A DNA stretch of 64,000 bases from Chloroflexota bacterium (GTDB lineage Bacteria; Chloroflexota; Dehalococcoidia; UBA2979), in the NCBI GenBank assembly GCA_947499615.1, contig CANMOP010000010.1:2306-66305 (forward strand), read 5' to 3'. Positions 6,652-55,010 of this stretch are shown here, piece by piece. A model generated the notes under the pieces. That model saw only the letters and a program-made list of their open reading frames with translations. It was not told where the DNA came from and did not search any database. Position numbers and translations under genes: made by a program. Within the stretch, counting starts at the first letter, position 1; each line of letters begins with the position of its first letter.

Positions 6652-6741
6652 ATGATTCAGTACGCGCTGCTTCGGTTCCTTATGGCGGCCAGCGTCCTGC
6701 TGCCCGGCCGCTTGCTGATCGCCGGAGCGAACGTGCTGGGC
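6652..6741 (+). pseudogene. 5' remnant of a probable second acyltransferase/membrane protein
   Basis: MIQYALLRFLMAASVLLPGRLLIAGANVLG resembles the N-terminal membrane helix of this acyltransferase family; the frame then loses protein-like character. Confidence 0.4.
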
Positions 6742-6742
6742 A

Positions 6743-7420
6743 AGCCCCGCGCTCACACCACTGCCGGAATTCGACGACGGCGCGATCAACGTGCTGTACG
6801 TGGGACGCGCCGAAAAGCGGAAAGGCCTGCCGTACCTGCTTCGGGCGTTCAGGATGCTGCACGCCCGCATCCCCGCCACGCGTCTCATCGTCGTGGGACC
6901 GGATTCGCGGCGCCTTCGCCGCTACCGTGCCACGATCGGGCAGGAGGCCGGACCGAGCATCGTCTTCGTCGATGGCGTATCGAACGTCGACCTGCCGCGC
7001 TACCACCGCAGCGCGCACATCTTCTGCTCGCCTGCCACCGGCAACGAATCGCAGGGATATGTGCTGCTTGAGGCGATGTCTGCCGCCCTGCCAGTCGTCG
7101 CATCGAACATCGAGGGGTACGCTTCTGTCCTGAGCCACGGGGTGGAAGGGCTGCTGGTGCCGCCGAAGGACTCATCTGCGTTGGCTGACGTGCTGACCGC
7201 ACTGGCGCGTGACCCCGGTGCGCGCCAGCGCCTGGGCCGAGCCGGACAGCTCCGCGCGGAGGAGTACTCTTGGCCCCGGGTGACGCAACAGTTCATCTCC
7301 TACTACGATCGGCTGCGGACGGAGCGTGCCCTGACCACTGGACGCGTGGCCGCAGCGGGAACCGTGACCGCGGACATGGATGCGAGAGCAGAGGGGAGGT
7401 GGATGCAATGGCGCGCGTGA
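6743..7420 (+). pseudogene. GT4 (PimA-like) glycosyltransferase, C-terminal domain only
   Basis: SPALTPLPEFDDGAINVLYVGRAEKRKG...ESQGYVLLEAM (EX7E); in-frame TGA at 6716-6718, so the N-terminal GT-B domain is absent. Confidence 0.75.
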
Positions 7421-15649: not shown

Positions 15650-16888
15650 ATGCGTCGCGTCGTCGTCACCGGCATCGGGCTGATCACGCCGCTCGGCAAC
15701 GACACCGCCTCGACGTGGGATGGCCTGGTCGCGGGGCGCTCTGGCATCGGCTACGTCACGAACTTCGACGCGTCGATGTACGAGTTCCCGATTGCCGGCG
15801 AGGTGCGCGGGTTCGAACCGGAGCGCTTTGTCGATGCAAAGCTGCTGCGCCGCATCGACCGCTCGTCGGCGCTGGCACTGGCCGCGACGCGTCTCGCCGT
15901 CGACGACTCGCAACTCGATGTCTCGTCGCTGCCGCCGGACAGCATCGGCTGCGTCCTCGGCACCGGCATGGGCGGCGCACACCTGCTGATCGAGAATCAG
16001 CGACTGTTCGATGAGAAGGGCCCACGCCGGGTCAGCCCGTTCATGGTCACCAGCATGCTGCCCGACACCGCCACCGGTCTGGTGGCGATCACGCTGGGCG
16101 TGCGCGGCCCGAACTTCGCGATCACCGCTGCCTGCGCGACCGGCGGCGCGGCCCTCGGCGAGTGTGCCGAGGTCATCGCGCGCGGCGACGCCGATGTGAT
16201 GATTGGCGGTGGCTTCGAGGCGCCACTGCGCCCGATCTACTACGCGGGCTTCCACGCCATGCGCGCCCTGGCGGAGCACGCCGACCCGACACAAGCGTCC
16301 CGCCCGTTCGACAAGGACCGCAACGGCTTCGTCATCTCCGAGGGCGCCGGCATCCTGATCCTCGAGGAATTGGAGCACGCGCTCGCTCGCGGGGCGCGCA
16401 TCTACGCCGAGTGGAAGGGCGCGGGCACCTCCAACGACGCGTTCGATATGGTTGCCGCCGCCGAGGATGGCCGCGGCATCGCGGGCGCGATTCAGCGTTC
16501 CCTCCGCCGCGCCGACCTCGCACCTGACGCCATCGATTATGTCAATGCGCACGGCACCGGCACCCCGCTCAACGACCGAGTGGAGACGCACGCCCTGCAC
16601 TCGGTGTTTGGCGATCACGCGGCACGACTGTTGGTGTCGTCGACGAAGTCGATGACCGGTCACATGATGGGCGCCGCGGGAGCCGTCGAGGGCGCCGTGG
16701 CCGCCCTCACCTGCCACTACCAGGTGGTGCCACCCACCATCAACTACACCACGCCCGACCCGGACTGCGACCTTGATTACGTGCCCAACGAGGCGCGACA
16801 CGCGACCATCCGAAACGCGATGAGCACCTCGGTGGGGCTCGGCGGGCACAACTCCTCGATCATCTTCGGACGCTGGGAGGGTGCGTAA
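15650..16888 (+). CDS. fabF: 3-oxoacyl-ACP synthase II (copy 1)
   Basis: RRVVVTGIG, AACATG, NAHGTGT and KSMTGH; Cys-His-His triad intact. Confidence 0.92.
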   Translation: MRRVVVTGIGLITPLGNDTASTWDGLVAGRSGIGYVTNFDASMYEFPIAGEVRGFEPERFVDAKLLRRIDRSSALALAATRLAVDDSQLDVSSLPPDSIGCVLGTGMGGAHLLIENQRLFDEKGPRRVSPFMVTSMLPDTATGLVAITLGVRGPNFAITAACATGGAALGECAEVIARGDADVMIGGGFEAPLRPIYYAGFHAMRALAEHADPTQASRPFDKDRNGFVISEGAGILILEELEHALARGARIYAEWKGAGTSNDAFDMVAAAEDGRGIAGAIQRSLRRADLAPDAIDYVNAHGTGTPLNDRVETHALHSVFGDHAARLLVSSTKSMTGHMMGAAGAVEGAVAALTCHYQVVPPTINYTTPDPDCDLDYVPNEARHATIRNAMSTSVGLGGHNSSIIFGRWEGA

Positions 16889-18144
16889 TGACTACTGCCT
16901 ATGAGCCGCGACGCGTCGTGGTGACGGGGGTCGGCCTTGTGACGGCCGTCGGGAACACGCGCGAGGAGACGTGGGCGGCGCTGCTGGCCGGCAAGAACGG
17001 CATCGTGCCGGTGACGCTATGCGACACGGATGGCCTCGCCTCGCGCATCGCGGGTGAGGTTCAGGGGTTCGACCCGCTGAACTTCATCGACCGCAAGGAC
17101 GCGCGGCGCATGGACCGCTTCGTGCAACTGGCCGTCGCCGCGACCGCCGAGGCGCTGGCGCACTCCGGCCTCGACGTGGCAGCGAACGCCGACCAGGTGG
17201 GCGTGATGATCGGCGCCGGGATCGGCGGGCTCACCACGCTGGAGGAGCAGTTCCACACGCTGTTCGAGAAAGGCCCGGACCGCATCTCGCCGTTTCTGGT
17301 GCCGATGTTCATCTCGGACATGGCGGCCGGGCAGGTCTCGATCCAGTTCGGCGCGCGCGGGCCCAACTACAACACGGTCTCGGCGTGCGCCTCCGGCGCG
17401 GACGCGCTGGGCACCGCCCTCGAGGTGATCCGCCGCGGCGACGCGGTGGCGATGCTGGCCGGCGGCGCGGAGTCGGCGATCACGCGCATGGGGCTCGCCT
17501 CCTTCGCCGCGTCGCGCGCGCTCTCGACGAAGCGCAACAACGACCCGGAGCACGCGAGCCGGCCGTACGACCTGCATCGCGACGGCTTCGTACTCGCCGA
17601 GGGTGCGGCCACCCTCGTGCTGGAGGACCTGGAGTTCGCGCAGGCGCGCGGCGCGACGATCCTCGCGGAGTTCATGTCCTACGGGCAGTCGGCGGACGCG
17701 TTCCACGTCACGCAGCCCTCCGAGAACGGCGAGGGCGCGGCGCGCGCGATGCAGATCGCCCTGCGCAAGGCGGGCATCGCCGCCAGCGCAATCAACTACA
17801 TCAACCCGCACGGCACCAGCACGCCACTGAACGACAAGTTCGAGACGATGTCGGTGAAGGCGGTGTTCGGCGAGGCGGCGCGCGGCATCCCGATGTCGTC
17901 GACGAAGTCGATGGTCGGGCACAGCCTCGGCGCGTGCGGCGGCATCGAGGCGGGCGTGACGGTGCTATCGCTGCGCGACCAGCGCATCCACCCGACGCGC
18001 AACCTCATCGTCCCCGACCCGGACTGCGACCTCGACTACGTCCCGGAGGGCCCTCGCGACCTCGCCATCGAGTACGCGATGTCCAACTCGCTGGGCTTCG
18101 GCGGCCACAACTCGAGTCTCATTTTCAGGCGGTGGGGCGAGTAG
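16888..18144 (+). CDS. fabF: 3-oxoacyl-ACP synthase II (copy 2)
   Basis: RRVVVTG, SACASG, NPHGTST, KSMVGH and SLGFGGHN; start overlaps the copy 1 stop. Confidence 0.93.
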   Translation: MTTAYEPRRVVVTGVGLVTAVGNTREETWAALLAGKNGIVPVTLCDTDGLASRIAGEVQGFDPLNFIDRKDARRMDRFVQLAVAATAEALAHSGLDVAANADQVGVMIGAGIGGLTTLEEQFHTLFEKGPDRISPFLVPMFISDMAAGQVSIQFGARGPNYNTVSACASGADALGTALEVIRRGDAVAMLAGGAESAITRMGLASFAASRALSTKRNNDPEHASRPYDLHRDGFVLAEGAATLVLEDLEFAQARGATILAEFMSYGQSADAFHVTQPSENGEGAARAMQIALRKAGIAASAINYINPHGTSTPLNDKFETMSVKAVFGEAARGIPMSSTKSMVGHSLGACGGIEAGVTVLSLRDQRIHPTRNLIVPDPDCDLDYVPEGPRDLAIEYAMSNSLGFGGHNSSLIFRRWGE

Positions 18145-19441
18145 GGGGGTTCCGCTCGAAAGCGTCTCGGAAGAGACGTTGCACTCCCAGAGCACGGGCA
18201 ACCAGTGCCGCAGCCACCCACGCCAGACTTTCGTATTCGGCGTTCCTTGTCTCCGGATCCGCCGACAAGCGCCCCGAGTGCACCTATTCGTTACGGACGC
18301 GAATTGCCCTGTAGGCGGCGGAATGCCGGGACGCAGCGTTCCCACCAATCGCAGCCCGGCTCATCACGTTCGACAACACGCGACGGAGCGGCACACGCTC
18401 CAGTTGCAGTAGGAGCCCCTCGATCCGCGAAAGCATTCCGTTTCTTAGGTTCGCGTCCCCGATCCTGTCGCTTAGCACGAGGCGACTGGCTTCGAGCAAT
18501 TCAGCCCGTAACGTCGGGGGAATCTCGGACGACGCTTCCGCCGCGACATATCGACGCGCGACGGCTGGCAAGATCGCATCGATAAGGCTCGCTGCCGACA
18601 GCGAACACACCTCGATAACCGAATCCCAACTGCACGCTTCGAGGTAATGATGAATCCACCCGCGCATTCGGGTTTTTTCAGGCTCCGGGAGTCCTAGATA
18701 CCGATCGAGCATCTCCTGACAATCCCAGCGTACCGAACGAAAAGCAAGGGGATGCCGCGCTCTCCGCGTTGTTCGCCGACTCCGTAGCTCGGTGAATAGG
18801 ATCGCCCCCTCCACAAAGAAGTCTAGTTGGTAGAAGCTCCCGAGATTGCCCGACTCGAGCGAGAGGACAGTGGTGAGCGAATCTACGCAGTCGGCGAGCA
18901 GCCTCTCGCCCACTCGGCCAGATACGTTCCCATCGTGCGTCTCAAAGAAGCCACCGACGCGTTCGAAAGTCCTTTCGGCCTCGTCCCGACCGACCAACGG
19001 GGCAACGACAATAGGCAGTCCCGCAGCTTGAATCGCAGACGCGCGGCCAAAGTAGTTGCAGAGGACGAAATCAACGCGATCGGCGACCGCCGGCATCCCG
19101 CGCTCGATGAGAGCCTGATACAGGGGAGCGATCAGGCGTGCCGAGTTGCAGCCGAAGATGCATTCGTTCATCACGACGCCGCTCGTCCAGCGGTTATTCG
19201 AAGAAAGTTGTCCCATGTTCTCAACAGAAACTGTGGCCGTTCGGTCTCCGGAGAGCGTGCCGTGGAACTGCCAGCCCTCATCGTCCATGACGATGTCGTG
19301 GCCACGGGTGCCCAAGATCACCTGGCCGGAAATCAACTGAACTAGCCGGAAGGACACAGGGATCTGTTCCTCACCGCGAAGGAGATAACCGACCCCCTCG
19401 AAGTCGGCGCGCGAGATGCCCAAGCGATCGATGAATTGCAT
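18125..19441 (-). pseudogene. Orphan lower-GC gene, ApeA-like HEPN protein interrupted by an in-frame TAG in the RxxxxH motif
   Basis: The ORF ends ...IRVRNE-TAG(18284-18286), then continues in frame VHSGRLSADPETRNAEYESLAWVAAALVARALG...TGA(18125); atypical codon usage; convergent on fabF. Confidence 0.55.
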
Positions 19442-19570
19442 TGGGTGAAGTCTTCGTTGGTCGCTGGTACGTGCATCGGCACGCGAACCACGGCGCGGAT
19501 ACGAGGATAGCCGCGCTCCACTGCCGCGCGCGATACACTCCCACCAGCCCCTCCCCGGAGCCAACGCCCT

Positions 19571-21280
19571 ATGACCACCACCTCAGCCGACGCAACGATC
19601 CTCGAGGGTTCGGGGGGGCGGCGGTGGCGCGTGCGCGGAGCCGCCGACCTGCTCGCGTTCGCGGGAGCGCCGTGGCCTGCGCTGGTCTCGACGCTGCTCT
19701 CCCATCGCGACGTGCATGACACCGCCGAGGGGCACGCATACCTCGGCGAGCCGGGGGAGCTGACCGACCCGCGGCTGATGCCCAACCTCGAGGTCGCGGT
19801 GGAGCGGCTGGCGCGCGCCTGCACGGCGGGCGAGCGGGTGGCGGTGTTCGGCGACTTTGATGTCGACGGCGTCACCTCGACGACCATCCTCACCGAGGGG
19901 CTGAGCGCGCTCGGCGCGGTGCCGTTGCCGTACATCCCCGACCGCTTCACCGAGGGCTACGGCCCCAACGTCGCGGCCATCGAGGCGCTGCACGCGCGTG
20001 GCGCGACCGTGCTGGTCACCGCCGACTGTGGCACCTCGGCGGTGCACGAGGTCGCGGCGGCGAATGCGCTGGGCATGGACGTGATCGTGATCGACCACCA
20101 CACCGTGCCAGACGAGCTGCCCGAGGCGCTGGCGATCGTGAACCCGAAGCTCAACGGCTCCGAGTACGGCAGCGAGCCCGCCGCCTGCGGGGTGGCGTAC
20201 AAGGTGGTGCACGACCTGCACGACCGGCTGGGCGTGGCGTACGACCCCGCGCCGCATCGCGCGCTGGTGGCGCTGGGCACGGTCTGCGACCTGGCACCGA
20301 TGCTGGCGGAGAACCGCGACCTGGTGCGCATCGGCATGGACGCGCTGCGCACCTCCAAGCGGCCGGGGCTGCTGGCGCTGGCGGACTCGGCGGGCATTGA
20401 GCTGCGCGACGTCGACGCCGAGGCGTGCGGCTGGGTGCTGGGCCCACGCATCAACGCGGCGGGGCGGATGGAGCACGCGCGCATCGCGCTGGACATGATG
20501 CTCGCCACCACCGAGGAGGAGGCGCGCCCGCTGGCCGCCCGCCTCGCCTCGCTGAATGAGCAGCGGCGCGATCAGACCGCAGCGGCGTTCGAGCTGGCGG
20601 GCAGTGCGCTCACGCACGAGCAGGGTGAGGCGGCGCTGGTGTTCGTCGCGTCCGAGGCGATCTCATCGGGCATCGTCGGGCTGGTCGCATCGCGGCTCGC
20701 GGACCAGCACCAGCGTCCGGCGATCGTCGCGCAGATCGCCGGTGACGAAGCACGGGCGTCGTGCCGCTCGATCCCGGAGTTCGACATCACTGCGCTGCTG
20801 CGACGTAACGCCGGGCTGTTCAAGCGCTTCGGCGGGCACCGCGCGGCGGCCGGCTTCACCATCGACGCATCGCGACTCGACGAGGTGCGTGCGGTGCTGC
20901 TCGCCGACGCCGCGCTGCACCTCGACGCGTCGAGCATCGTCCCCACGATCGATATCGACGCCGAGCTGCCGTTGCGCGATGTGAACACCGAGGTGTTGAA
21001 GTGGCTCGGCCGGCTTGGGCCGCACGGCATCGGCAACGCGACTCCCACGTTCCTCTCGCGCGGCGTCACGGTCATCGACACGCGCATCGTCGGCAAGAAC
21101 GGCACGCACCTGCAATTCAAGCTGCGCGAGGGCCGCGTGACCTGGAGCGCGATCGCCTTCGGCGCAGCGGAACGCGCTGTCCCCGCGGGCGAGGCGGCCG
21201 ATGTCGTCTACACGTTCCGTCGCGACAGCCTGCGTGGCACGCTCCAACTGGAGGTGCTCGACCTGCGCCCGGCGCAGTAG
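19571..21280 (+). CDS. recJ: Single-stranded-DNA-specific exonuclease
   Basis: GDFDVDG, TADCG, DHH, LGTVCD, PRINAAGR and FGGH..AAG motifs. Confidence 0.96.
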   Translation: MTTTSADATILEGSGGRRWRVRGAADLLAFAGAPWPALVSTLLSHRDVHDTAEGHAYLGEPGELTDPRLMPNLEVAVERLARACTAGERVAVFGDFDVDGVTSTTILTEGLSALGAVPLPYIPDRFTEGYGPNVAAIEALHARGATVLVTADCGTSAVHEVAAANALGMDVIVIDHHTVPDELPEALAIVNPKLNGSEYGSEPAACGVAYKVVHDLHDRLGVAYDPAPHRALVALGTVCDLAPMLAENRDLVRIGMDALRTSKRPGLLALADSAGIELRDVDAEACGWVLGPRINAAGRMEHARIALDMMLATTEEEARPLAARLASLNEQRRDQTAAAFELAGSALTHEQGEAALVFVASEAISSGIVGLVASRLADQHQRPAIVAQIAGDEARASCRSIPEFDITALLRRNAGLFKRFGGHRAAAGFTIDASRLDEVRAVLLADAALHLDASSIVPTIDIDAELPLRDVNTEVLKWLGRLGPHGIGNATPTFLSRGVTVIDTRIVGKNGTHLQFKLREGRVTWSAIAFGAAERAVPAGEAADVVYTFRRDSLRGTLQLEVLDLRPAQ

Positions 21281-36733: not shown

Positions 36734-36867
36734 CTCGCACCACCAATCGAATCATGGGACCGCTGACCAGGGATGGCGTCGCGCCACTCGCACACGCGCC
36801 AGTCCACGCGCCACAGTTCCAGCGCTACGGTGCGCGCGGATCGCTGTGCGGTGCGGTTGCGTCTCAT
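36730..36867 (-). CDS. Putative Trp-rich leader peptide (45 aa) coupled to trpE
   Basis: MRRNRTAQRSARTVALELWRVDWRVCEWRDAIPGQRSHDSIGGAR; AAGGGA RBS 9 nt upstream; its TGA overlaps the trpE ATG. Confidence 0.5.
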   Translation of the reverse strand: MRRNRTAQRSARTVALELWRVDWRVCEWRDAIPGQRSHDSIGGAR

Positions 36868-36921
36868 GCCGTTCAATCCCTTCTCGGTTGCCCACCAACG
36901 ACTGACCACCCAGCGGTGATC

Positions 36922-36954
36922 AAAAAAGGACCATCGCCAATGGGGCGATGGTCC
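36922..36954 (-). terminator. T-box intrinsic terminator
   Basis: 11-bp stem GGACCATCGCC/GGCGATGGTCC followed by TTTTTT. Confidence 0.9.
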
Positions 36955-37285
36955 TCGCGGTGCCACCCATTATCGCGCGCGCCGTTGGGCGCACACGCTC
37001 GTCGCGGCACGACCGACGCGCGCTCTGACGAGGCGCGGACAGCGATGCCCTAGGCCTGGATAACGGCGCCCACACCGTCGACGCCTACTGACCACTCAAC
37101 GATGCGAGGGGCGTTCGGGCCGAGACTCCCGGGTCCATTCAGCCGCTGCTGTTGATGACTGGACGGCTCGCTTACGCGTACCGCCAGTGTCGGGCGCCGG
37201 GCTCGCACCTACCCCGGCTCTCTGCTTCCACCGGTGAACCGGCGGACCTGCCCCGCAACACGGCGTACTACTCCCGATCGACGTC
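36922..37285 (-). ncRNA. T-box riboswitch, Trp-specific
   Basis: Minus strand: AGTA, AGAGA box, GGTG box, specifier GAA-TGG-A (TGG at 37137-37135), GAAC/AGTA S-turn, CCGTTA, T-box AATGGGTGGCACCGCG (36971-36956); the UGGC bulge fits the tRNA-Trp G73 discriminator. Confidence 0.92.
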
Positions 37286-37312
37286 TGTATGTATTCGAAT
37301 TGACGTGTTTCG

Positions 37313-37342
37313 AGGCTACCCGCCGGTGGCAAGAGGTGTCAA
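37313..37342 (-). promoter_or_regulatory. Sigma70-type promoter of the trp leader
   Basis: TTGACA-N18-TAGCCT about 30 nt upstream of the T-box 5' end. Confidence 0.6.
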
Positions 37343-53931: not shown

Positions 53932-55010
53932 CAACCACGGCGCCTCGACCAAACATGACACTGGATGAAATGACCTCGCTCCTCCTGAACGAACTGCAGG
54001 ATCGCTACCCGTTGGTGGAGCGCCCCTACGCCGAGGTCGGCGCTCGCCTCGGCATTTCGGAAGAGGAGACGCTGCGCCGGCTCAAGGAGGCACGAACGGC
54101 CGGCGTAATCCGCCAGGTCTGCGCCATCTACGACACCAAGGCACTGGGCTACTCCTCCGCGCTGGTCGCGATGCACGTGGAGCCGGAGTTGTTGGCCCGC
54201 GCGGTCGCAGTGGTGAACGCGCATCCCGGCGTCTCCCACAACTACCAGCGCAACCATGATTTCAACGTGTGGTTCACCGTCGCGATGCCGCCCGGCAACG
54301 ACCTTGACCACGTGATTCAGCGCATCCACGAACTCTCCGGCGCGACATCTACACGCCCGATGCCGACGCTGCGGCTCTTCAAGATCGGCGTCACTCTCGA
54401 TATGTCCGGCGAGCGTGACCTCGCTGCGCGCGGTGCCCCGGAGTACTCCGAGGAGCGTCGCGAAGAGGCAGCCCTGCATCCCATCACGGAAGCGGACATC
54501 GCCTACATCCGCGCCACGCAGGGTGACCTCCCAGACGTCGCCACCCCATTCGAGGCTGTAGCGAAGAAGCTCGGCATGACGGTGGAGCAGGTGCTCGCGC
54601 ACGGGCGCCAGATGGTCGATCACGGCCACCTGCGCCGCTTTGCGACGATCCTTAACCACCGGGCCGCGGGATTCCGCGCCAACGGCATGGCCGTGTGGAA
54701 TGTGCCGCAGGATCGCATTCTTGAGTTCGGCACGTTCGTCGCGGGCTATCGCAACGTCTCGCACTGCTACCAGCGCCCGACGTACGAGGACTGGCCGTAC
54801 AACGTCTTCTCGATGATCCACGCGCCGCGCGCGGAAGGCGTCGAGGCAGTGGCGGACGCGATCGCTGCGGAGACGGGGGTCACCGACCACCGCATGCTGT
54901 ACTCCAGCACCGAATTTAAGAAGATTCGGCTGCCGTACTACACGCCCGAGTACGACGAGTGGGAAACTCGCTGCGCGGCGGCCGCCCGGGGCGACGAGGT
55001 GCGCGGGTGA
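53928..55010 (+). CDS. ahbAB: Fused siroheme decarboxylase AhbA-AhbB (NirDL/GH-like, Lrp/AsnC fold)
   Basis: Two Lrp-like halves with VSHNYQR and VSHCYQR (HxYxR) motifs; NGMAVW, WPYN.FSMIH and EFKK. Confidence 0.88.
   Translation: MTTTAPRPNMTLDEMTSLLLNELQDRYPLVERPYAEVGARLGISEEETLRRLKEARTAGVIRQVCAIYDTKALGYSSALVAMHVEPELLARAVAVVNAHPGVSHNYQRNHDFNVWFTVAMPPGNDLDHVIQRIHELSGATSTRPMPTLRLFKIGVTLDMSGERDLAARGAPEYSEERREEAALHPITEADIAYIRATQGDLPDVATPFEAVAKKLGMTVEQVLAHGRQMVDHGHLRRFATILNHRAAGFRANGMAVWNVPQDRILEFGTFVAGYRNVSHCYQRPTYEDWPYNVFSMIHAPRAEGVEAVADAIAAETGVTDHRMLYSSTEFKKIRLPYYTPEYDEWETRCAAAARGDEVRG

Follow-up and report, generated by a model that had tools for sequence, protein, structure and literature searches.

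An amber codon in the catalytic-type motif of a rare ApeA-like HEPN gene between fabF and recJ: a probable young pseudogene on a Dehalococcoidia contig

HEPN domains have an all-alpha core of four helices and are defined by an Rx4-6H motif in which the arginine is followed by a polar residue (N, D or H); according to Anantharaman et al. (2013, PMC3710099), this motif is located where helix 3 ends, and its histidine is described there as essential in RNase L, PrrC and RloC. ApeA, a HEPN ribonuclease (RNase) of about 600 amino acids, is reported to form decamers and to comprise an N-terminal part (residues 1-198), a Mid part (199-309) and a split HEPN domain (335-583); it cuts tRNA anticodon loops once 5'-phosphorylated deoxydinucleotides are bound, its defence is abolished by R502A and R521A, the motif arginine being required, and the closest structural neighbour of its HEPN core is given as HepT (10.64898/2026.01.26.701840). 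A second report states that RNA-phage genomes are also cut by ApeA, gives RNKITH as the motif of Ec1ApeA and presents Bp1ApeA, a very distant 'minimal' homologue of 467 amino acids, which was not transformable into E. coli and is presumably toxic (Drobysheva et al. 2026, 10.64898/2026.03.20.713152). The present analysis concerns a reading frame of this general type, located at 18125..19441 on the minus strand of a 64,000-nucleotide stretch of Chloroflexota DNA (contig CANMOP010000010.1, positions 2,306 to 66,305; the whole stretch is called the window hereafter), which lies between fabF and recJ and is interrupted by one in-frame amber codon (TAG).

Like ApeA, this reading frame forms a single-gene locus with no required partner, and the family to which it belongs has its HEPN motif near the C-terminus. 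The motif type is also common to both, being R-N-x-L-V-H-x-G in the family and, as aligned, R-N-L-I-V-H-T-G in Ec2ApeA. Unlike the ~600-residue ApeA, the family members measure about 435 residues and their N-terminal 250 residues have no match; the copy in the window is, in addition, broken. Bp1ApeA, as described, and the family are both short and ApeA-like. As for the HepT-type minimal HEPN toxins, they are HEPN RNases that are toxic when active, as the intact protein of the window would be; unlike in HepT pairs, there is no adjacent antitoxin (MNT) gene here, and the size is threefold that of HepT owing in part to an N-terminal region of unknown kind. The locus is quite probably a young pseudogene: a single gene of the toxic defence type, coding for an ApeA-like HEPN RNase, which was acquired recently and inactivated by a TTG to TAG change. 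Its features are listed below:

18125..19441, minus strand: ancestral HEPN-family reading frame, 438 codons plus TGA, with one internal TAG (sequence, profile score of 259 bits, stop counts).
18287..19441, minus strand: part encoded under translation table 11, 385 codons, comprising the N-terminal region and most of the HEPN-like domain and ending at R383-N384-E385 (207.9 bits).
18278..18295, minus strand: catalytic-type motif R383-N384-E385-[TAG]-V387-H388 (family alignment; profile alignment to R-N-L-I-V-H of Ec2ApeA).
18284..18286, minus strand: in-frame amber codon at an invariant Leu position, the single lesion (sequence and alignment).
18125..18283, minus strand: post-stop remnant of 52 sense codons plus TGA, with V387, H388 and the last helix, including the family-conserved R416 and G419 (35.7 bits).
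18605..18607, minus strand: TGT (Cys279) where 14 of 15 homologues have Arg, in the E-x-R-A-L motif of the HEPN-like domain (alignment).
18673..18678, minus strand: run of six A (codons 255-257), at which a second copy, P0002, is shifted by one base (P0002 tail compared with the +1 frame of the window).

The reading frame starts at ATG 19441-19439 and passes through CGT AAC GAA TAG GTG CAC (18295-18278), the TAG occupying 18286-18284. It then remains open for 52 sense codons up to TGA 18127-18125, the final 20 nucleotides of this remnant overlapping the 3' end of the neighbouring fabF gene (fabF2) on the opposite strand, and the product, written with X at the break, counts 438 residues. These limits are those given in a preliminary description of the locus, made from the sequence alone (a gene stopping at R-N-E-TAG, then open for 52 codons to TGA 18125). 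In the list of open reading frames (ORFs), the gene is represented by two pieces, 18284..19564 (426 amino acids, from an upstream TTG start) and 18125..18283 (52 amino acids, from a GTG right after the TAG); the N-termini of the homologues begin in the alignment column of ATG 19441, which supports this start. Only two of the 439 codons in the frame of the gene are stops (the TAG and the terminal TGA) vs. 9-13 in each of the other five frames, and the alignment to a family profile built without the window is unbroken over residues 1-426, in line with the earlier remark that no other lesion is visible.

At the composition of the gene, 52 open codons following a stop have a chance of about 19%. 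With the same window-free profile, the full read-through product scores 259.3 bits and the part before the stop 207.9 bits; the 52 residues behind it, taken by themselves, reach 35.7 bits (E 2.3e-13, for a single-sequence search space and a profile made from homologues only). Given this last score, the continuation is homologous coding sequence and the true end of the gene, not a chance extension. The GC content at third codon positions (GC3) is 0.673 after the stop vs. 0.688 before it. The table-11 product retains the R and N of the motif and lacks its H; the amber codon stands at an invariant Leu, and the protein made under the normal code therefore ends at residue 385, without the motif histidine and the last helix.

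When 1.84 billion cluster representatives were searched exhaustively with HMMER, 16 proteins were obtained at E <= 1e-3, eight of them at <= 1e-10 and two at <= 1e-30. One of the 16 (P0003) is an identical fragment of 93 residues. The other 15 are 18-32% identical to the protein of the window; twelve of these measure 426-458 amino acids, and in most of them the alignment spans residues 1 to about 425, the shorter rows being N- or C-terminal partials. The read-through length of 438 residues is therefore the normal length of the family. Word-indexed protein searches found P0002 only, and a profile search added P0015 and P0019. At the motif, the family consensus reads T-R-N-x-L-V-H-x-G-R-F: R383, V387 and H388 are present in all 16 rows and N384 in 15 of them, which bears out the earlier identification of R-N-E-x-V-H, once read through, as the HEPN motif near the C-terminus. 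The column of the TAG is Leu in all 15 aligned homologues, or 16/16 once P0019 is added. Upstream of the motif, a conserved acidic residue is found, which is Glu in the window as well as in 12 of 15 homologues.

Concerning the databases, the window's own protein (with X at the break) has no match in Pfam, PADLOC or NCBIfam. No match was obtained by tblastn with P0001, P0004 and P0012 against plasmids or with P0001 against phages. Single-sequence searches of the PDB gave no match for P0006 and, for P0010, chance-level matches to RSC8 and an IL-17 receptor only. Judged by these searches, the family of ~435 amino acids is rare, undescribed and unnamed, with no above-threshold match in Pfam, NCBIfam or PADLOC. 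In the family tree, the protein of the window forms a lone long branch (1.67 vs. a median of 1.14), on which relaxed constraint and plain divergence are inseparable.

The Pfam model HEPN_Apea (PF18739) is matched by 13 of the 15 homologues, the two others being P0009 and P0018, with scores of 14.5-24.2 bits and E-values of 4.8e-5 to 0.05; these E-values refer to one protein against 24,736 models, and the curated gathering cut-off of the model is 24.4 bits. All the matches fall, in co-linear fashion, within the C-terminal region 280-430. That these sub-threshold matches recur and are co-linear argues for distant homology and, because an ApeA-like HEPN domain had been named before any search was run, the repeated matches outweigh, in our judgement, any single E-value. 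The Cas13-ApeA models of PADLOC are matched by three and one of 16 members. As in the HEPN definition given above, the family motif combines an R followed by a polar N with an H at Rx4H spacing, which in the window holds only via read-through of the TAG, and a crude Chou-Fasman estimate places 46% of residues 251-438 in helix-leaning segments.

As for residues 1-250, no member has a Pfam or PADLOC match there, and nothing was found in NCBIfam or the PDB; likewise, no match to the N-terminal and Mid parts of ApeA was seen in the sequence searches. Since the family is also about 160 residues shorter than ApeA, it is ApeA-like in its catalytic domain only and is not a member of ApeA. The evidence thus supports the assignment of the C-terminal third to an ApeA-like HEPN RNase domain, and the label of the preliminary description, HEPN (ApeA-like), holds for this domain, by virtue of the 13 sub-threshold matches, and does not extend to the N-terminal and Mid parts. 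With its ApeA-type HEPN motif behind an N-terminal region of unknown kind, the family may be regarded as a candidate 'minimal ApeA-like' defence protein.

TAG is the commonest stop codon in the window: of 58 heuristic ORFs, 26 terminate in it, among them fabF2, recJ and tyrS, and it was rightly described beforehand as an ordinary stop for many genes. In fabF2 and recJ, it falls where the matches to relatives end (query residues to 413-418 of 418 and 565-569 of 569, respectively). Three features of a nonsense pseudogene are found together: homologues with a sense codon, homologous sequence after the stop, and a TAG that is read as a stop. None of the homologues shares the stop, as is the case for a simple pseudogene, and of the origins proposed in the preliminary description, one substitution (TTG to TAG) or a sequencing error agrees with the invariant leucine and the homologous post-stop part.

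TTG is the sole Leu codon that is one substitution away from TAG, and it accounts for eight of the 49 Leu codons of the gene. If TTG is assumed, two of the 121 single-base routes to a stop lie within the six motif codons and 88% of the routes at or before His388; the position of the stop inside the motif carries little weight, because these 88% would kill the enzyme likewise. As RNA, the 106 nucleotides that surround and follow the stop show no better folding than shuffled sequences (z = -0.11), and no readthrough-type structure was found after the TAG. The Cys279 codon may be a second, missense change, or lineage variation.

The surroundings of the gene comprise the following features:

18145..19525, no strand: low-GC insert of about 1.4 kb containing this one gene only (composition; fabF2-recJ spacing in relatives).
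16888..18144, plus strand: flanking gene fabF2, second member of a tandem pair of beta-ketoacyl-ACP synthase genes (fabF-type), with TAG as its stop codon (domain match, relatives).
19571..21280, plus strand: flanking gene recJ (DHH, DHHA1 and RecJ_OB domains), ending in TAG (domain match, relatives).

The GC content across 18200-19500 is 0.58-0.62 vs. 0.68-0.75 in the flanks, and the bin 18001-19000 (0.615) is the lowest of the 64 one-kb bins, the remaining ones ranging from 0.646 to 0.732. The GC3 of the gene is 0.68, vs. a mean of 0.843 (standard deviation 0.041, minimum 0.72) for the 57 other heuristic ORFs, which corresponds to z = -4.0; the gene had indeed been called compositionally foreign from the start. 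Likeness to the sequence upstream of recJ in relatives starts again near 19528, and the insert is therefore placed at about 18145-19525, with one gene.

The fabF2-recJ junction was also analysed in relatives. A RecJ search of genome contigs yielded 80 loci, of which the best 24 (63-77% identity), all from Dehalococcoidia or Chloroflexota metagenome-assembled genomes, were submitted to tblastn; fabF2 and recJ were both present in 22. The gap between the two genes is at most 214 nucleotides in 17 of these 22 loci and 531-2852 nucleotides in the other five (L001, L002, L007, L010 and L023), vs. 1426 nucleotides in the window. Eight ORFs from four of the five inserts were scanned for their cargo, the 531-nucleotide gap of L002 (L002:5470-6001) being left out. 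The insert of L001 (L001:4630-6001) carries a HigA antitoxin (TIGR02607, 72.3 bits) and two unknown ORFs, that of L010 (L010:2710-3926) an APH-type phosphotransferase, that of L023 (L023:1956-4808) Glyoxalase_6, YjbR and a 510-amino-acid ORF, and that of L007 (L007:5017-6001) an unknown low-GC ORF of 324 amino acids. The cargo thus differs, and is unrelated, between loci: in this Dehalococcoidia group, a small hotspot with changing cargo is located at the fabF2-recJ junction.

No integrase, tRNA or flanking repeat was found to account for the targeting of this hotspot. In the window itself, no direct repeats bracket the insert (low-identity, chance-like pairs only), no tRNA gene occurs within the 64 kb and no integrase was seen among the ORFs scanned. 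No sigma-70-like promoter was found at the locus, which has two terminator-like sites vs. 1.3 expected. Rfam gave a single match within 17800-19900 (E 0.52) and none at the gathering threshold in the whole window. The family profile, run on the ORFs of all six frames, detected no relative in any of the 80 loci, and the genome-contig search with the window's protein gave 71 pattern matches, none of which was confirmed. The foreign origin of the gene follows from its GC3, its location in the lowest-GC bin, the absence of a relative in the 80 loci and the fact that fabF2 adjoins recJ in 17 of the 22 related loci. Elsewhere, the window holds housekeeping genes, i.e. infB, truB, fabD and fabF, tyrS, and trp, rib and heme genes.

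The two tandem fabF-type paralogues (15650-16888 and 16888-18144, plus strand) meet at 16888, and the pair is kept in related loci; they are about 47-50% identical to each other's orthologues.

A second copy of the gene, P0002, comes from ENA. It shares 98% identity with the window's protein in residues 1-256, where one substitution (A233D) occurs, and lacks one A of the A6 run listed above; its tail of 66 residues corresponds to the +1 frame of the window with 0/66 mismatches. With the frameshift of P0002 and the TAG of the window, two records thus show the gene in a broken state, each at a site of its own.

According to the reading favoured here, a single gene of the rare family would have been acquired horizontally by a member of the Dehalococcoidia (Chloroflexota) and inserted into its chromosome at the variable site that separates fabF from recJ. 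By analogy with ApeA, the intact protein would have been a HEPN RNase whose active site is formed jointly by the two chains of a dimer and which cleaves RNA once triggered. A single T-to-A substitution would then have turned TTG into TAG at the family-invariant Leu of R-N-x-L-V-H, and the truncated product of 385 residues would be catalytically dead. Toxicity such as that presumed for Bp1ApeA would be a cost of the sort by which silencing is favoured. As a genome feature, the loss of a toxic RNase gene of horizontal origin through one point mutation is ordinary, and the modest value of the locus lies in its rare unnamed family and in the variable fabF-recJ site.

Several points weigh against this reading. 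At the level of the domain, the HEPN_Apea cut-off is reached by none of the 15 homologues, and the window's own protein has no match to this model at E <= 1. The top PDB profile match, to Ec2ApeA (9hxb_A), covers 29 residues at R-N-L-I-V-H-T-G and is non-significant (E 0.44). RNase activity, toxicity and an anti-phage role are read from the family name only. At the level of the lesion, general decay is not observed, 5 of 31 conserved columns deviating in the window vs. a family range of 1-8; this lack of further decay fits a very recent event, and fits an error equally well. Many internal-stop 'pseudogenes' are reported to be assembly artefacts (Cooley and Wright 2024, PMC11017572). As for P0002, the only near-identical sequence, it ends before codon 386 and is thus silent on the TAG, and its frameshift, lying in a homopolymer, could itself be an error.

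The main rival is accordingly a sequencing, base-call or assembly error, in which case the organism would have TTG (Leu) and an intact, possibly active HEPN gene, and the locus would represent an intact member of the family. A single base makes the difference between the two readings, and the scarcity of other decay signs (unbroken profile, two stops, column count within the family range) and the published frequency of such artefacts are in favour of an error. However, the assembly is not visibly error-rich: the 54 other ORFs scanned look like housekeeping genes, mostly with end-to-end domain matches, the single oddity among them being a half-length glycosyltransferase ORF. An error would, moreover, have to strike the only foreign gene of the 64 kb and create a stop there, and the near-identical copy P0002, from another record, is also broken, at another site. 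An error is therefore considered unlikely, if worth keeping in mind. If, on the other hand, the mutation is real, the 385-residue product might have been kept in a non-catalytic role, as an RNase-dead sensor, a scaffold or a dominant-negative partner; the intact pre-stop part, whose divergence at conserved columns is within the family range, speaks for it. Yet no homologue ends near the TAG, the full-length members all measuring 426-458 amino acids, the frameshift of P0002 at codon 257 would destroy such a product, and the 1.4-kb insert holds no partner gene, which makes a retained product quite improbable.

The other alternatives give the amber codon a function. In the preliminary description, it was speculated that the gene encodes a latent nuclease, becoming a full-length RNase only when UAG is read through, owing to a phage amber suppressor tRNA or to a TAG-recoding phage. 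Taken further, the codon would be kept on purpose, as a trap in which recoding by a phage, through imported amber-suppressor tRNAs or a TAG-recoded late programme, completes the HEPN RNase and leads to host suicide or RNA cleavage, a scenario which we regard as highly improbable. The stop is indeed in frame with an undecayed catalytic end, and TAG-recoding phages with suppressor tRNAs are documented (10.1101/2021.08.26.457843, PMC10879173). All homologues, however, have a sense codon at this position, Leu in 16 of 16, so that the stop does not characterise the family; among the normal stops of the window, TAG is the most frequent, the RNA around the amber codon shows no special folding, the window has no tRNA gene, and the upstream frameshift of P0002 is beyond rescue by any suppressor. 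In addition, the recoding described in PMC10879173 inserts Gln and not the invariant Leu, and no description of an amber-dependent HEPN trap was found among the literature matches listed. The latent nuclease thus finds no support and is very improbable.

Alternatively, ribosomes could terminate at the TAG and re-initiate at the adjacent GTG, the chains of 385 and 52 amino acids reassembling into a two-piece enzyme. An in-frame GTG does follow the TAG directly and can be called as the start of the 52-amino-acid ORF. Against this, the cut would fall inside the catalytic motif, which PMC3710099 places at the end of HEPN helix 3; by eye, no purine-rich ribosome-binding stretch is present in the 15 nucleotides before the GTG; a search for short proteins matching residues 300-438 scored none of 78 candidates; and no homologue is split at the TAG site. 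Such an enzyme must be considered very doubtful indeed. Least credible of all, and close to negligible, is a genome-wide or gene-specific reassignment of TAG, for instance to pyrrolysine, for which the in-frame TAG itself is the whole of the evidence. Among the 26 ORFs that end in TAG are conserved housekeeping genes ending where their relatives end, the position concerned is an invariant Leu, and no Pyl-type gene was seen among the 54 plus 4 ORFs scanned.

A control of pseudogene content or assembly quality based on in-frame stops between GC3-rich ORFs was tried and gave 146 sites; it was dropped because DNA of 70% GC has long open frames everywhere.

The glycosyltransferase ORF mentioned above (6719-7420, plus strand) encodes at most 233 amino acids and contains only the C-terminal Glycos_transf_1 half (positions 194-384 of 385 of the GT4-conflict profile). 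About 160 nucleotides of non-glycosyltransferase sequence separate it from the upstream acyltransferase gene, and it may be a truncated gene. Its cluster consists of inositol-phosphate synthase, acyltransferase, glycosyltransferase and CDP-alcohol phosphatidyltransferase genes. Elsewhere in the window, the region 36752-37338, about 600 nucleotides upstream of trpE, has no convincing ORF and no Rfam match, and no gathering-threshold Rfam match was found upstream of the riboflavin genes either. Finally, a duplicated AsnC-type/NirDL-like siroheme decarboxylase, absent from the heuristic ORF list, is encoded at 53934-55010 (plus strand). It adjoins chlorite-dismutase-family and siroheme genes, with which it forms an alternative heme pathway cluster.

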